A stretch of DNA of 64,000 nucleotides from Sphyrna mokarran (Eukaryota). The stretch's first letter is position 1, and the number at the start of each line of letters is the position of its first letter. Of this stretch, positions 3,140 to 64,000 are shown piece by piece. A program made the translations under genes and the position numbers. Location: assembly GCA_024679065.1 (NCBI GenBank), contig JAGIQG010000009.1, forward strand, positions 107,198,001 to 107,262,000. Reading direction: 5' to 3'. The notes under the pieces are model-generated. The model searched no databases. It saw nothing but the letters and a program-made list of their open reading frames with translations, and was not told the DNA's origin.

Positions 3140-4429
3140 TATATAGTACAGCAGGTCACTCCGTTGAAAGGCAATTAGAGATAGGCAATGAGAAACTGTC
3201 TTCCCCGCCCCCTGACCCCTGTAAAAGGATTAAAGTGGTTTGCAAAGTAAAGTCAACGTGAGGTGAGAGAAAGCTCCACGCAAAAGAGTGATTAGGGATC
3301 TGGGCTGCTTTGCCTGAGTGCGTGGCAGGTTCATTAAAAGAAAATTAAATCATTATTTGAAAAGGGAAAAAAAATTATGGAGGGTTATAAGGAGAATGTA
3401 GGAGAATGACATTGCTGTTCTGGGAGCCAGTGCAAACACAAAAGGGCTGAATGGCCTTCCTTGTGCACTGCAACAAGTCTGTTACTCTTACGCTCAGTTA
3501 CCTATCCTCTTTCTCACTCTCTTCGCCATCTGCTGGTATCTCTGTCTCGCTGCACCCTTTTCAGACCACAATTGGAACAAGGGAGCAAAGTTAGATCATT
3601 CACTCGGAACCTGATCCAGTGTTCAGTCAGATTGTGGTGGATTTCGTTGTGAGTCTCAACTTCGCCCTGCTGTTTGCCCTCCCTAATCCTTGATGCTCCT
3701 GTCTATCAAAAGTCCAGCTAACTCTGCCTTGAATAAATACAGCGGCTCAGCGTTCATAGCTTCCTGGGAATGGGGTGGTGGCACGGGGGTTAGCACTGCT
3801 GCCTCACAGCGCTAGGGACCCGGTTCAATTCCTGACTTGGCTCAATGTCTGTGTGGAGTTTGCACATTCTATTCATGTCTGCGTGGGTTTCCTCCAGGTG
3901 CTCTAGTTTCCCCTACAGTCTGAAAGATGTGCTGGTTAGGTGCATTGACTGTGCTAAATTCTCCCTCAGTGTACCTGAACAGGCACAAGTGGGGGATTTT
4001 CACAGTAACTTCATTGCAGCGTTAATGTGAACATACTCGTGACAAATAAACTCTAAGCTTATTATAGGAACCTATTTCTCCCACACCACACTCTTTAATC
4101 TTATTTACCCCATGCCCATTCCCTTGTAGCTAATGGAATAATCATAGGATAATTTGATGTTCTTTTTAATTTGCCTCATAGTTTCTATGCAGAATCTGAT
4201 TCCTGTGTCTTTGACATCTACAGGAACCATCGCACTCTGAACCCTCCTCTCTCCGTAGGCCACCCCTCTCTGGCCCAGAGGAGTTGAACTCTGTTACTGG
4301 TCAGCTAACATAACCATCTGGACTGCTGCTCTCAACTGCGGAGAGCCATGTAAATTCCCCAGGCTATATAGTCCCCAAATGCTACTAAATTCCTATTATC
4401 TCTCTCTGCTTGAATAGCTCCCGGCATCA

Positions 4430-5850
4430 TCACCATTGGGAACTGTCGAGGGGGCATTGGCTGTCTTAATTTTTCTGCCCTCTCAGACCCATTCCAACCT
4501 CCCTCCCTCCAAATTTATCCAGTCTTCACCCCTTCAGGTCCAACCCCGACTTTTGTCATCAAACCTGCCTACAAAGAGGCTGTTGGTTCCATCTGGCCTA
4601 CTGAACTCTACTTCGCAGAGGCTGAGTACCAACTCTCAGGCACTTCTTTCCTGAGCCTACGTGCATTTCCTCCAGATGCTGCGGTTTCCTCCCACAGTCT
4701 GAAAGGTGTGCTGGTTAGGTGCTTTGGCTGTGCTAAATTCTTCCTCAGTGTACCCAAACAGGCACCACTGGGACTATGGTGAATCGGGAGATTGATATCA
4801 GCTTCAGCAAGCAAAAAGGAGAACATGCCTCTGTCAACATCAATGGGGACGAAGTAGAAAGGGTCAACAGCTTCAAGTTTTTAAGTGTCCAGGTCACCAA
4901 CAACCTGACCTGATACCCCCATGCCGACACTACAGTTAAGAAAGCCCACCAACGCCTCTACTTTCTCAGAATACTAAGGGAATTTGGCATGTTAGCTACG
5001 ACTCTCACCAACTTTTACAGATGCCCCATAGAAAGCATTCTTTCTGGTTGTATCACAGCTTGGTATAGCTCCTGCTGTGCCCAAGACCACAAGGAAGTAG
5101 AAAATGTTGTGAATGTAGCCCAATCCATCACGCAAACCAGCCTCCCATCCATTGACTCTGTCTACACTTCCCGCTGCTTTGGCAAAGCAGCCAGCATAAT
5201 TAAAGACCTCACACACCCCAGAAATTCTCCCTTCCACCCTTTTTCCTAGATACAAAAGTCTGAGGTCATATCCTAACCAACTCAAGAACAGCTTCTTCTC
5301 AGCTGGTGTCAGACTTTTAATTGATCTACCTCGCATTAAATTATCTTTCTCTGCACCCTAGCTCTGACTGTGACACTACATTCTGCACTTTCTTGTTCCC
5401 TTCTCTATGAACAGTATGCTTTATCTGTATAGCGCGCAAGAGGCAATACTTTTCACTGTATGTTAATACATCTGACAACAATAAATCAAATCAAATCAAA
5501 ACCAAACCTTCTCCTGAACTACAACCACACCACTGAACATCAAGCCATTATCTCCAACACTGTCACCGACCTACTTTCCTCCCCGCAGCTTCCAAGTTCA
5601 CAGTGTCCCAAACCCAGACAGCCCGCTTCCACCTCTCCCCGCCACCCTCCCCCCCATCTCTCTCTCCACACACACACACACACCTTGCCACCAGTTTGTT
5701 CATCCACTCTGTATTCACCACTTCCTTCCATCTAGAACCTCAAACCTGTCGAACAATCACAAAGCCCGAGCTCCTTCATTCCTACCTGCTTGGTTCCCAT
5801 GTCCGATTCACTTGCACTCACGCCTTCCCAACTCTGACCATGAATGAAAT
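4430..5850 (+). mobile_element. Older Penelope RT fragment (about 4430-4650 and 5503-5850) interrupted by a SINE piece and a Rex1/Babar copy
   Basis: TTEHQAIISNTVTDL...PRTARF-like remnants resume after the nested insertion. Confidence 0.55.
4780..5500 (+). mobile_element. Rex1/Babar LINE 3' fragment (representative). Other copies about 548-1290, 2660-2950, 14420-14760(-), 15150-15610, 25680-25900(-), 39660-40225, 52840-53580
   Basis: ORF remnant LTNFYRCPIESILSGCITAWY...KAASIIKD.THP and a (AATCA)n tail. Confidence 0.8.
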
Positions 5851-56935: not shown

Positions 56936-57527
56936 CGAAATGTGTGACTCATACCTTTTTGGAAGACACTTCTGCATTAACCTACCCCACACCTCCTCCC
57001 ACATCGGTTAAAGAGATATGCAAACCACAGTAAAACATCACTTAAAACAATAAGTGTTTCTTTCATACCGTTGACTCTGTTTCCCTCTTTCCACAGAAGC
57101 TTCCAGACCTGCTGAGTTTATCCAACATTTTCTGACTTTGAATCAAGCTACAAAAGCTTGCTGAGCGAACTTGCTGCTCTGACTGCTTAACATCTCAGTC
57201 TTCAAACTGAAATGGGGACTAGATTAGTTTGCAAAAGACAAACAGGTTTGAGAATCAATGCATCCTTAAAGGTCGGTGTGTATGTGTTTTGCTCTTTGCG
57301 AGATGCTGGCAGTGATCATAGGCTGACTGTAAAACAGGATATGCACCCCCACGAAACCAGACAGCGGGTGATACAGCTCTGCTGTAACCGCGACGGGACG
57401 GCATGTGAAATGCTAACAATGAGAAAGAACGTGCACTTTATTTGAGCCTGAGCGATGTGTACTCCCCCCAAACCCCAGCACCCCTTACCCTACACCACAT
57501 ACGCACCCTCAGCCCCTTCCAAAATCC

Positions 57528-57782
57528 ATCGGAATTCTCAGATGTTGCAAAGGCAGGAATCGCCGCTTCGTTCAATTTCAGCAAGATTTTCCGTCCTCGT
57601 CGGCGGCTGGAATTCGCCGGTCCCGCTGCCGCCGAGGGAGATTTGGCTGAGCGCCAAATTCTTCATTCCGTGGTGGAGGGGTGGGGCGGGGGGCATGCAA
57701 GAACGGAGAATCCCCAGAGTCTATTCACTTCTAGCGGAGACCGGAGAATCTCAGCCACCAGCGAGGACGGAAAATCCAGGCC
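57528..57782. mobile_element. GC-rich hairpin/MITE-like dispersed element; similar pieces about 34690-34830, 39012-39135, 60520-60670
   Basis: GGAATTCTC/GGATTTT ... GAGAATC/GGAAAATCC inverted ends recurring at several loci. Confidence 0.45.
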
Positions 57783-59475
57783 ATTTATGTCTCAATTCTG
57801 GGGCATGCTGACAAACCTGGCATTCCTATTGAGAATGATTAGTTCGTATATTTCTTGGATTATAGGTTAGAAATTCTAGGAGGGTGACATGGGTCATTTT
57901 CCCCGTCAGACGGAGCAATCGGGTTAAAGTCTGAGGGGAGCTCCCCTGACAGTGCGGCACGCCCTCAGTACTGCATTCAAATGTCTGTGTGGGGCTTAAA
58001 CCCAGCGGCTCCAGTTCCAAGCATGTTACAATTCACATGTGACCTATAGAAGATGGCAGATCTATATTCTACCAGTCTGAGAGCGTCCCATTTGGAAAGG
58101 AGCAGATGTGACACCCACTATTCAGGAAAGGAGGGGGTAGAGAGAAAAAATAGGGACATGTTATAGTCAACATGACATCCTTCACTGAAATCCGAGATCA
58201 GGACAAGGATCTTACCTCAGAGGATGCCAGGTAAGAGCAGAAGTAGGCCAATCGGCCCCTCAACCGCCTCTGCCAGTCAATCAGATGATTTGTTTGTGTT
58301 TTTAATTCATTATCCCCCATCTACTCTTTGAATCCCAAGATAAAGGCAAAATATTGCGAATGTTGAAACCTGAATTAAAACCCTAATGAATCATAGAACC
58401 TCACAGTGCAGAAGGAGGCTATTCAGCCCGTTGAGTCTGCATCGGTAACCATCCAACCCAGGCGCTTTCTGCGTCACCCGACACACTTACCCCGTCAATC
58501 TCTCTAAGTACACATTCCAGGACACTAAAGGACAATTTAGCAATCGATAACATGCACATCTTTGGACTCATCCTGATTCAAAACTTTATTCTCTCCCCAC
58601 AGATGCTGTCAGACCTGTTGAATTTTTCCAGCATTTTCTGTTTGTGCATTCTTTGATTCCTTTGACCAATCTATCTACGCCCCCTCCACCTTAGAAATAT
58701 TCAGTGACCCTGCCTCCAACACATTCTGAGGCAGAATGTTCCAAAGACACATGCTCCTCAGAGAAACAAATGCATTAGCATTCTTTCGTAATTGGCAGTG
58801 TAGACTTACATTGACACTGCAATTAAGTTATTGTGAAAATCCCTGATTTGCCACACTCCAGTTTGGGTACACTGAGAGAGAATTTCGTACGGCCAATGCA
58901 CCAAACCAGCATGCCTTTTAGGCTGTGACAGGAAACCAGAGCACCCATGGGAAGAAACCCATGGGGAGAATGTGCAGACTAGCACCGACAGTGACCCGAG
59001 CCTGGAACCGAAACCAGGTCCTCGGAGCTGTGAAGCACTGTTAACAACGGTGTCACCGTGCCATCCTCTGCGTGTTTTGATTTTGTGAAGATATTCGATA
59101 AAGATCCATGTTACTGTACCAGGTATGGGTACATGGAATCAAGAGTAATTTTTTTTATGAAGGCTGTGTAAAAAAAGAGGTCACAAGGGACATTTCCAAG
59201 GACCGGTGTAACAATTGCAGCCTCCTACAATCTGCACGAAGGGGCTGTGGATGAGCAGAGTTTAGCAGAGAGACACGCAGCTCAGCGGGAAAGCAGGTTG
59301 TGAGCAGGAGGTGAACAGTTTTGCGACAGGCGGCTCAGCAAGTGGACAAGCAAGCGGCAGAGACAGGATGTGTTGAAACATAGGACTGGAGTACAGGGCA
59401 TGGCGGAAGCAGCAGATTACATTGCTTGCTTCTGTTTCTGAGACTAAGGGTTGCAGAGGATTATAATGGGCAAAA

Positions 59476-60029: not shown

Positions 60030-60209
60030 TTCACTCACATCCTGTCATCAATCTTGTCCTGATTTGCAGGCAGCGGCGTCTTCCTGTCAGCTTTAGCTGT
60101 CAGTGCGCCCTAGTCCCAGCGTCCTACACTCGGGCTGGTGAATGTAGCCGGATCTCGGCGGTCCTGCGATCGCTCCAGTGAGAGCGCTTTTCCCTCCGCT
60201 GAACGGAAA
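60030..60209 (+). promoter_or_regulatory. Probable TATA-less promoter/5'UTR of the NCR3-like gene
   Basis: Unique, locally CpG-rich sequence with ETS sites CACATCCTGT (60036-60045) and CTTCCTGT (60080-60087) just upstream of the ATG. Confidence 0.4.
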
Positions 60210-60270
60210 ATGCCAATGAATCTGTGTCCTCTGCCTGCCTTTATTCTGACCTCCTGTCTCTTCGCCGCAG
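60210..60270 (+). CDS. Leader exon of the NCR3-like gene
   Basis: AAAATG start, 20-codon hydrophobic signal peptide, donor CAG|gtaaga. Confidence 0.85.
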
Positions 60271-60393
60271 GTAAGACAACACTCCTGATCTGAGGACATC
60301 TGCTGAACTGTGTAGAATTAACCGTGTGGGGTTGCTGGGCGTGTTCTAAGGTGAATCTCTTAAATGTTTGTAAACTAGAAAGAAAAGTGCGGG

Positions 60394-60424
<31 letters not shown>

Positions 60425-63400
60425 GTGTGTGTGTGTGTGTGTGTTTGGGGAAAGGTGGGGAAGGGGTGCTACTTTATCTTCTTTAGTGGTGTTCTAAACT
60501 ACCCACCCCATCCCCATACTGCCGGATTCTCCAACCTCGCCCGCAGCAGGAATTCTCCAGTTCCGCTGCAGTGAACGGTTGATGCACTAAATTTTCCTTC
60601 TTGCGGACGGGGCTTGAATCCCTCCGGCTGTGTTGGAGGGCTCGCAATGAGCCCGGGAAATTTTATTTTGGCTGAGGGGGGTGTGTCGGAGCTGATTGAT
60701 TAGCTGCCCTTGTGTGATGGTGGGAGACTCGCACTACTGCATGGGGTTAATATTGAGAGGGGCGACGGCTGATGTGACACTGTCCACCCCCTTTTTCGCT
60801 TCTCCTCTGCCTGCCCAATAATATTTGGAAGGTATACAAGGCATGTCCAGTTCTGTTCAGGAACCTTCTCCACCCCCACTTCCCCTATAGCCCAGTAACG
60901 TTTTGAAAACTAGCGGTCCACACAATAGGGAACGAACACGCGTGCAAATAGTAGAAAGTAAGACCTTCACTTTAGTTCAATTCCTTTCGGAGGAGAAGTT
61001 CAAGTAAAAGGAATCGAAAGGGGGAAAATAACTCAAATTGTGATCAAGTTAACTCATGTATCAAGGCGGCAAGGAAGAACAACGAGTGATGACTAACTGA
61101 AGACTTTATTCCCGACAGGAGTTCACTCAGATAAGCCAAAAATACAGCAGACACCTCGGTCAGTGAATCTGACTGAAGGCCGTTCCGTTACTATGAATTG
61201 CACCATCAATATCGCGGGGGGTAAAGCTTACAAATGGCTGAAAAATGATATTGAAGTACAGCGGGTTATTTCGACGTACGCGAAAAGAGTAACCGAAAAC
61301 CAGCGAACTTTCAATGATCCTAACATATTATGGACAAGCCTAGAGATTAGAAATGTCGCAGAATGCGATTCGGCAACGTACTATTGCCAAGTGGACAACG
61401 TAGGCCAAATAACAAAGGGTGAAGGCACCACCCTAACCGTAACCCGTAAGCACATTGTGTTAATTGTGTGTGTGTGTGTGTGTGTAGCTTTATGTACTTA
61501 CGAAAACTTCCCTCTATAAATGTGCGCATGTGAGCGTCTGTGCGAGGGTGAGTGTGGGTATATCTGTAGTTTTTTTTACTATTCATTCGTGGGACTTGGG
61601 CGTCGCTGGTTCGCAAGCATTTATTGCCCATCCCTAGTTGCCCTTGGAGGGCAGTTAAGAATCAATCACATTGTTGTGGCTCTGGAATGTTGGCCAGACC
61701 AAGTAAGGATGGCAGATTTCCTTCCCTGGAGGATATTGGTATGTATGTGGGTCTGTCTCAGTGAGAAGGCACACGTGCTTATGAAGCTAAAGCCTTGTGT
61801 GATTTCAGGAAGAAGTTTGACATAGCTCTTTGGGGCTAAAGGGATCAAGGGATATTGGGGGAATCAGGATATTGAATTTGATGATCAGCCGTGAACAAAA
61901 GGAGTGGCGGGGCAGGCTCAAAGGGCCGAATGGCCTACTCCTGTTTCTAGTTTCTATGTTTCTATGTATTTGGTCTTAATTTGTGAGCGTTCAAATGTGA
62001 TTGCCTTGTGGTTATACATGTCTGTGTAAGAATATACGTGTGTGACACACACACATACATTCTCAAACAGACAATCCCACATAAATATATGTGTCTGAAC
62101 CTGTGAGAGTTTATCTGTAACTCTGTATCACAGTGTGAGTATGTGTGCGTGACTGTATCTCTGTAAGAGTGTGTATCTGTGTGCGTTTGCATTGGAGTGT
62201 CTATATAGAAACAGAAAATGGAAGCAGCAGTAAGCCATTCGGCCCGTCGAGCCTCCTCCACCATTCATTTTGATTATGGCTGATCATCAAATTCAATGTC
62301 ACGATTGCTCCCTTCCCCATATCCCGTTAGCCCCTAGAACTATATCTAATTTCTTCTTGAAATCAGGCAATGTTTTAGCCTCTGCTTTTTTCTGTGGTAG
62401 TAAACTACACACATTCACTACTCTCTGGGTGAAGAAATATGTCCTCACCTCAGTCCCAAGACGTTTACCCTCTTATCCTCAAATTATGACCCTTACTATT
62501 TTTATTGTTCATTCATGGGACACAGACGTCACTGGCCGTCCGGCATTTCTTTATTCCCCATCCCGACTTGTCCTTGAAACTATTTGCTCGGCCATTTCAG
62601 AGGGCAGTTGGGGGTCAACAACATTGCTGTGGCTCTGGAGTCACATGTAGGCCAGACCAAGAAAGGACGGCAGATATCCTTTCCTAAATGACATTAATGA
62701 ACCAGATGTGTTTTTCCAACAATTGAGAATGGTTTCAAGTCATTCTGGGCTCCCCCACCACCAGGAACATTCTGAATTTACACTGTCTTATCCTGTTAGA
62801 ATTTTATATGTTTCTATGAGATCCCCTCTCAATCTTTTGAACTCCAATGAGTATAATCCTAACCAAATTAGTCTCTTCTCATATGACAGACCTGCCTTCC
62901 CAGGAATCAACCTTTGCTGCACTTCTTTGAGGACCTCTTTTCCAGATAAGGAGATCAAAACTGCACATAATACTTCAGGTCTGGCCTCACAAGCAACCTA
63001 TACAAAGCTTATGAGAGCAAGTGCGTATGTCTGCATGAGAATGTGTGTGTATGTGTGCCTGTATGGGACTGTTTGTACGTATGTCTGTGTCAATCGGATA
63101 TGTATATATATCTCTGGGACTATGCGTATGCCTCTTGGTGATAATATGTTTGCCTCACTACCTCAGAGTGTGACAGCCAAAATATGTCAGTAGATACGTG
63201 TCTATGAGTGTGCACGCCTGCCTGTCACTGTTTGTGTGTGTCTGTGAATGTTGCAGGCAATGTGCATGCATGCACCAAGGGGGACTGTTGCTGAGACCGC
63301 CATCACTTAATGTGAAACAACCCTATTTAATATTAACGGAAAAAAATCACTATTCTTTTGTTGAGGTGCCAATGCTTGTCTAACTTATCTTCCCACTATC

Positions 63401-63530
63401 ATTTTAGGTGTTACATCAAAAACAAAATGCTCGATTAATGATGTGCTTCTTGGAGTATTGGCTACAGTGATAGGATTGCTTTGTATTTTACTAACTATAG
63501 TGTCACTGCTTCTCCACCAGAGAAAAAAAG
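60210..63530 (+). CDS. NKp30/NCR3-like single VJ-type IgSF type I membrane receptor, 3' incomplete: join(60210..60270,61119..61445,63408..63530)
   Basis: Three phase-1 exons with GT-AG boundaries. Leader MPMNLCPLPAFILTSCLFAA/GVHS; V domain with Cys (MNC), Trp (YKW), DSATYYC and G-strand GEGTTLTV; stalk plus TM VLLGVLATVIGLLCILLTIVSLLL followed by HQRKK. YYCQVDNVGQITKGEGTTLTV resembles NKp30 YVCRVEVLGLGVGTGNGTRLVV. Confidence 0.85.
61119..61445 (+). CDS. V-J Ig domain exon of the NCR3-like gene
   Basis: Acceptor cccgacag, donor C|gtaagc, 327 nt open; canonical V-set residues; N-glycosylation sequons NLT and NCT. Confidence 0.92.
63408..63530 (+). CDS. Stalk/transmembrane exon of the NCR3-like gene
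   Basis: Acceptor attttag, donor AAG|gtattt; encodes RVTSKTKCSINDVLLGVLATVIGLLCILLTIVSLLLHQRKK. Confidence 0.85.
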
Positions 63531-64000
63531 GTATTTTTATGCATTTAATCGATTACTATTATTGCTATTAGTGTGATGGTGACCCTATTGTCCCACTTAC
63601 ACTCCTTTCTTGTTCCTTATTGTTATTCTTTATTCACTTTACGAGATGGGAGCGTCGGTGGCCGTCTAGCGTTTATTACCCACATCCCTAACATTGGAGA
63701 GTCAATCATGTTACTATGGAGTGCCATGTCGGCCAAGTCAAGGACAATAGATTTCCTTCCCTAAAAGACATTTCTGAACCAAATGACTTTTTACAAGAAT
63801 CTACAATAGTTTCATGGTCATTCATCGATTTTTAATTCCAGATTTTTATTAAACTTAAATTTTACCATCTGCTGTGGCGAGATTTGAACCTGGATCCCTA
63901 GATCTTGCCCTGGGTTTCGAGTCCAGTGACAATACTACTATGCCACTGCCTCACGTTTTTTTCTATAGGTTTCTACTTAAATTTTGTAGAATTCCAAATC

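Follow-up and report, generated by a model that had tools for sequence, protein, structure and literature searches.

A shark NCR3/NKp30-family receptor gene with an uncharged transmembrane core and a conserved juxtamembrane tail segment

Introduction

How does a receptor of the NKp30 type pass on a signal when its transmembrane (TM) core has no basic residue? CD28 and CTLA-4 have a cysteine in the stalk. According to PMC6514059 and PMC12272517, the TM Arg of NKp30 couples the receptor to CD3zeta and FcRgamma. A gene of the shark Sphyrna mokarran raises the question in a sharp form: an earlier note on its DNA described an NKp30-like V domain, a TM core without Arg or Lys, and two extra cysteines, and proposed a novel, inhibitory or CD28-like receptor that signals through its own cytoplasmic motifs. 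We examine the structure of this gene, its relatives among sharks and rays, its neighbours on the contig, and the features of its tail.

Gene structure and splicing

The window is the whole stretch of DNA that was analysed, 64,000 nucleotides of contig JAGIQG010000009.1 (C1548:107198001-107262000). The segment L008 (C1548:107262001-107272000) follows directly after it. The features of the gene are given below, with positions in the window unless they are marked L008.

60089..60209, plus strand: 5' UTR part of exon 1; the limit is the start of the X1 contig, and the true start is not shown
60210..60270, plus strand: exon 1, leader peptide, with 14/14 residues as in the catshark leader (X1 contig)
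61119..61445, plus strand: exon 2, single-exon V-J Ig domain with G-x-G and a non-canonical EF-loop Cys (Pfam, X1 contig)
61364-61366, plus strand: codon of the EF-loop Cys in exon 2 (motif AECDSATYYC)
63408..63530, plus strand: exon 3, stalk with Cys (TKC), uncharged TM with a TM Cys, and basic stop-transfer (X1 contig)
63531..64000, plus strand: start of intron 3; the gene runs past the window end
L008:2108-2126, plus strand: putative exon 4, 19 nt, which exactly fills the gap at 633-651 of the X1 contig and contributes with exon 5 to the conserved juxtamembrane helix
L008:3561-3595, plus strand: exon 5, conserved juxtamembrane helix (X1 contig cover)
L008:5665-5699, plus strand: exon 6 (X1 contig, GT..AG joint from exon 5)
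L008:8974-9102, plus strand: putative exon 7, from orthologues: Ser-rich stretch, poly-Lys run, distal DYVHD tyrosine, and stop

The gene at 60210..63530 and beyond is a real, spliced shark immune-receptor gene. It has seven exons, four of them beyond the window, and its 729 nt encode 242 aa; in the full seven-exon model, all introns have GT-AG borders. A contig of 1065 nt from run X1, which is probably RNA (the kind is guessed) and is the only run on record for the gene, covers 60089-60267, 61116-61445, and 63408-63530. Its positions 1-179, 180-509, and 510-632 map consecutively on exons 1-3 with 0 other letters. Positions 644-684 of the same contig cover L008:3553-3593, followed by a GT..AG joint from 3593 to 5663 and 37 letters beyond the joint. 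Splicing of exons 1-3 and of exons 5-6 is shown by this one probably-RNA contig, and support for expression comes from one run of one study. Because the contig joins exons 1-3 without intervening letters, exon 3 is the TM exon that is spliced in; a check of this contig for a different TM exon with a basic residue finds the uncharged exon 3 in use. Exon 7 lies outside the stretch compared with the X1 reads and rests on orthology: it is 87% identical to the Mustelus orthologue (E 7e-18) and 56% identical to the catshark orthologue (E 8e-8).

The V domain of exon 2 is a Pfam V-set match (E 5e-12) and is 72% identical to its Mustelus orthologue. All three motifs that drew attention to the gene, namely the Arg/Lys-free TM core, the stalk Cys (TKC), and the V-domain Cys (AECDSATYYC), are found on the plus strand where the earlier note had placed them. 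An Asp at the outer TM edge, also remarked on there, is not conserved: position 141 of A3 holds I, Y, S, M, or V. At 57409-57870 of the window, 2.3 kb upstream of the gene, there are non-repetitive-looking open frames with no Pfam match.

Family membership and orthologues

Orthologues in 17 sharks and rays were collected by HMMER, cluster look-ups, and alignment searches, and most of them are annotated as 'uncharacterized'. The nurse shark orthologue, QTT61902.1 (UniRef A0A8A9WR54), is already deposited as 'natural cytotoxicity triggering receptor 3' (NCR3), and the word novel does not apply to the receptor. In a tree of 40 rows with a midpoint root and no human sequences, the window V exon and 16 V-domain orthologues, QTT61902.1 included, form one clade of 17 rows with support 100/99. 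Judged by its VJ exon, its MHC linkage, and this clade, the gene is a member of the shark NCR3/NKp30 family, in agreement with its first description as an NKp30-like VJ receptor. Across sharks and rays, the predicted proteins indicate a gene that is conserved as a single-V-domain receptor without a TM Arg.

PMC12227049 cites eight nurse shark NCR3 genes (MT914154-914161), and we infer that QTT61902.1 is one of these. The nurse shark protein is like the product of this gene in its EF-loop Cys, stalk Cys, uncharged TM core, juxtamembrane segment, poly-Lys run, and distal YVH; it is unlike it in two places, since its outer TM edge is His where this gene has Leu, and its distal motif reads YVHC instead of YVHD. 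The family and the orthologue are thus already on record, and the modest new detail is the conserved juxtamembrane/heptad tail. No description of the tail of this receptor was found in the literature searched, which is not proof that it is unpublished; the uncharged subtype and the tail may already be in print in Kinlein et al. 2021.

A word-limited search with the tail gave 12 proteins of 53 candidates, all elasmobranch; a word search that compared the V exon with longer proteins gave 27 candidates, none scored. For Cetorhinus, 3 of the 4 RefSeq isoforms seen (models P0034, P0158, and P0167) are out of frame in the tail, and isoform X2 (P0174) agrees with the other sharks.

The two extra cysteines

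Conservation shows that the extra cysteines are not a matter of chance. All 16 orthologues having a V domain carry the EF-loop Cys. The stalk Cys is found in 13 of 17 species and is absent in Pristis, both Mobula, and Hemitrygon. Both occur together in 12 of the 16 V-domain orthologues, in the gene itself, and in its sister paralogue. This pairing would fit an intrachain disulfide from the V domain to the stalk, and with it a monomeric decoy or adhesion-type receptor. We consider such a receptor very unlikely. The four rays keep the EF-loop Cys without a stalk Cys, so the EF-loop Cys does not need the stalk Cys as its partner. A stalk Cys is also present in paralogous TM exons at C1548 107.356, 107.706, and 107.320 Mb; at the first two of these sites, the neighbouring V exon is without the EF Cys. 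An intrachain bond would also leave the conserved tail unexplained.

The cluster on the MHC contig

The linkage to the MHC that had been proposed for the gene is borne out: it shares its contig with 53/53 MHC class I matches (73 candidates scored), which lie at 85.8-95.8 Mb. The gene, at 107.26 Mb, is on the same chromosome-scale contig and outside the class I region, whose nearest match lies about 11.4 Mb away. A search for MHC class II gave no match, which says nothing about linkage either way. NKp30 is named as an MHC VJ gene in PMC10751288. Human NKp30 (NCR3) is similar in its single V-J domain and its MHC linkage; it differs in its TM Arg, in place of which the shark gene has an uncharged core followed by a four-exon tail, and in the distance to class I. 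The TM Arg of a mammalian-type activating NKp30 has no counterpart in the TM core of the gene or of any of the 21 orthologous proteins.

The neighbours are NCR3-like genes. A scan of 664 kb shows 17 intact and 4 broken NKp30-like V exons over about 445 kb, with ours at the head of the row, and the TM exons of the cluster, matched to V exons by strand and distance only, comprise seven that are uncharged and six with Arg or Lys. On tandem paralogues with a TM Arg the earlier note was right: the cluster holds both kinds. A second group of NCR3-like V exons, three at C1548 96.29-96.87 Mb, adjoins the class I cluster 10.4 Mb from the gene.

Between 190 and 330 kb downstream of the gene, at about 107.447-107.584 Mb of C1548 on the minus strand, lies a paired array. 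It contains four genes with an uncharged TM, behind each of which comes a putative tail exon bearing 2-3 canonical ITIMs (VIYADL is one of these), and interleaved with them three Arg-TM genes, one of which has a stop in its V exon. Two of the ITIM genes possess a pair of V exons separated by 2-3 kb. By its predicted TM and ITIM exons, this array is the paired family that the earlier note expected, but it belongs to another clade, and our gene is not its inhibitory half. An uncharged TM in the shark NCR3 family does not mean 'inhibitory'.

No close Arg-TM twin of the gene was found in the scanned region or among the 150 of 163 candidates scored genome-wide; the best-scoring paralogue is 33-34% identical and is also uncharged. 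The sister paralogue lies 158 kb away (C1548:107417199-107417976, plus strand), on a sister branch with moderate support (90/75). Of the V exons that this genome contributes to the tree, 19 in all, it has the only other EF-loop Cys, and it shares the stalk Cys, the uncharged TM, and the same I144, L158, V161, L165, R168, and K170.

Tyrosine motifs in the tail

The tail is 75 residues long and is encoded by four exons. With the downstream exons recovered, a scan of exons 4-7 finds no ITIM, ITSM, YxxM, or YxN; the two tyrosines of the tail lie in VAYITE and PDYVHD. Neither the ITIM pattern (S/I/V/L)xYxx(I/L/V) nor YxN occurs in any of the 21 orthologous proteins, and the proposal of signalling through the gene's own ITIM or YxN falls with these counts.

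An inhibitory or switch receptor acting through its own tyrosines would have to rely on other sites. In sharks this would be the non-canonical distal Y(V/I)H, and in rays a site that resembles an ITSM. Such a receptor is in line with a TM core that is without Arg or Lys in 21/21 orthologous proteins (the TM scan trimmed the outer edge), and with the distal Y(V/I)H of 12/12 shark species, which usually stands behind an acidic residue. An ITSM-like TEYxx(I/V) is present in 4/21 proteins, from three ray species (Pristis, Mobula hypostoma, and Hemitrygon), and YxxM in 1/21, from Mobula birostris only. The missing ITIM speaks against tyrosine-based inhibition, as does the +3 residue of the distal Tyr, which is Asp in the gene and in Mustelus and breaks YxxPhi; moreover, the true ITIM genes of the cluster carry their two or three canonical motifs in the other clade. 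We regard this alternative as unlikely, though it deserves some weight. The TEYxx(I/V/M) of rays, just past the conserved helix, may represent a lineage switch of the tyrosine motif.

In the ray orthologues P0157, P0168, P0170, and P0171, the stalk and TM Cys are lost and the distal Tyr is mostly absent. An IQ-type calmodulin motif in the tail was rejected by eye, both Arg positions of the consensus being missing.

Comparison with the CD28 family

With the CD28 family (CD28, CTLA4, ICOS, CD28H, CD28HL1-3, CD28X, and PD-1) the gene shares the V-TM-tail layout, the G-x-G of strand G, the uncharged TM, and the stalk Cys. The hallmarks given in PMC11599192 are PPP or EIP in CDR3, YxxxxT in the TM, and a cytoplasmic YxxM, YxN, or ITIM. 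The gene has no PPP or EIP (the CDR3 region of P0002 is without Pro), no YxxxxT in its TM, and none of the three cytoplasmic motifs, YxxM being confined to the one Mobula birostris protein. Unlike the CD28 family, it sits in an NCR3 cluster on the MHC contig, and sharks own separate CD28-family genes. The idea of an NKp30/CD28 intermediate finds no support here; by the motifs of its predicted protein, the gene is not CD28-like and not inhibitory.

Intron 6 contains, at L008:5966-6199, a single-copy open frame of 77 codons with YANV, LYNA, and YDN, which is either chance or a relic tail exon. Were part of it (L008:5993-6199, with YANV and YDN) used as an alternative last exon, the product could be a CD28-like costimulator signalling by YxN; the two YxN sites, an AG in the right phase 293 nt past exon 6, and the single-copy nature of the frame would suit this. 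The annotated orthologous proteins lack YxN in all 21 cases and use exon 7 instead, the frame is without X1 contig cover (weak evidence when taken alone), and there is neither PPP/EIP nor YxxxxT. Such a frame is expected by chance at 0.04 in intron 6 and at 0.12 over the tail introns; it has no paralogue in the genome, where its sole match is itself, and no Pfam match above the cut-off. A YxN isoform is accordingly highly improbable.

The outer edge of the TM segment

A further alternative is an activating receptor that engages an ITAM adaptor (CD3zeta, FcRgamma, or DAP12) through a conserved TM face without the canonical Arg. The motif-free tail would fit, as in activating NCRs according to PMC6514059. 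So would the basic residues at or near the outer TM edge in 9/17 species: His in 8 of the 17, and in Heptranchias an Arg that lies one place further out. In this gene the edge residue is Leu, and the 75-residue tail with a near-invariant segment, together with the uncharged TM core, is unlike the Arg/Lys-TM paralogues; we find Arg-free adaptor coupling distinctly unlikely.

The predicted juxtamembrane helix and its heptad face

The 18 residues after the TM (KACIALQRQFVAYITEKS in P0162) have a mean pairwise identity of 91.5% in 14 orthologues. For the same 14, the values are 50.3% in the V domain, 61.8% in the TM, 80.4% in the poly-Lys run, and 32% in the distal tail; Leucoraja, whose tail is mis-modelled, was dropped from the comparison. 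A tail segment that is near-fixed, and far above the ligand-binding domain in conservation, points to a fixed intracellular or intramembrane partner, and its shortness makes it a testable bait.

All 5 invariant TM residues occupy a/d positions of one heptad register, and the register continues past the TM through R168, C172, L175, F179, Y182, and K186. Conservation is 0.95 at a/d versus 0.76 elsewhere, with permutation p values of 0.008 for 142-187 (best of 7 registers) and 0.016 for the TM alone, which are modest and come from columns of related species. AlphaFold2 models the Mustelus orthologue with one helix at 141-190 (mean pLDDT 71, about 59 at 181-190). In Heptranchias, the Tyr of the juxtamembrane helix is replaced by Phe, as for a packing residue. 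The conserved face of this predicted helix marks a putative partner surface, without telling which partner. An amphipathic helix lying on the membrane was rejected, its moment being 0.20 against 0.25 in shuffles and so not above chance.

Proposed mechanism

The reading that we prefer, tentatively and as one that stops a little short of probable, is that the receptor forms half of a dimer, whose chains would be joined by a predicted helix that leaves the membrane and extends into the cytoplasm. The heptad face would pack on a second helix, belonging either to another copy of the receptor or to a different chain, with the sister paralogue as one candidate. The EF loop sits at the membrane-proximal pole of the Ig fold. 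From this position, close to the membrane, the invariant Cys in the EF loop of the V domain would lock the two chains together, and in sharks the stalk Cys may help. Within the cell, the invariant cytoplasmic Cys may be palmitoylated and the poly-Lys run may bind the inner leaflet; output would pass via the partner chain, or else via a protein that docks on the juxtamembrane helix, and the one non-canonical distal Tyr would tune it. By family analogy only, the ligand is likely a B7-family protein.

Several observations weigh against a dimer of this kind. In sharks, the two extra cysteines could pair inside one chain. The TEYxx(I/V/M) of four rays and the distal tyrosine shared by all 12 shark species suggest that tyrosine signalling may matter more, and the basic residue (His, or Arg in Heptranchias) that some species have at or near this edge of the TM leaves some room for adaptor pairing in the orthogroup. 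In addition, the juxtamembrane segment is no more amphipathic than shuffled sequences, and pLDDT is low at the end of the helix.

CD79b (Ig-beta) and other disulfide-linked VJ accessory chains form dimers with TM packing. In a Foldseek search with the orthologue model, B-cell receptor/Ig-beta chains stand, by title, at ranks 1, 2, and 7 (E 6e-9 to 2e-8), and the NKp30 structure 3NOI at rank 42 (E 1.1e-7); generic V domains have E-values within about 20-fold of these, which indicates a similar fold, not kinship. Unlike CD79b, the gene has no ITAM. PDB sequence searches were non-discriminating, returning TCR, antibody, and I-set domains, with NKp30 and CD28/CTLA-4 absent among the 60 rows listed, and the atlas look-alikes are generic V-TM clusters only.

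A bolder extension of the dimer would join the gene and its sister paralogue in a disulfide-linked heterodimer like CD79a/b or CD8alpha/beta. In the shark MHC, the two would then make up a VJ co-receptor of ancient origin that does not rearrange, is zipped by a coiled coil from TM to cytoplasm, and signals without an ITAM adaptor, ITIM, or YxN. This idea draws on the fact that the EF-loop Cys and this TM face are common to these two V exons and to no others in the cluster, and we attach little probability to it. The pre-RAG ancestor of antigen receptors is modelled on shark NCR3 genes.

Duplication and decay are evident in much of the cluster, and this member has been kept across sharks and rays. 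At C1548 107319774 (plus strand) there is an Arg-bearing TM exon without a nearby upstream V exon on its strand, and at C1548 107335154 (plus strand) a V fragment; both are likely decay products of the cluster.
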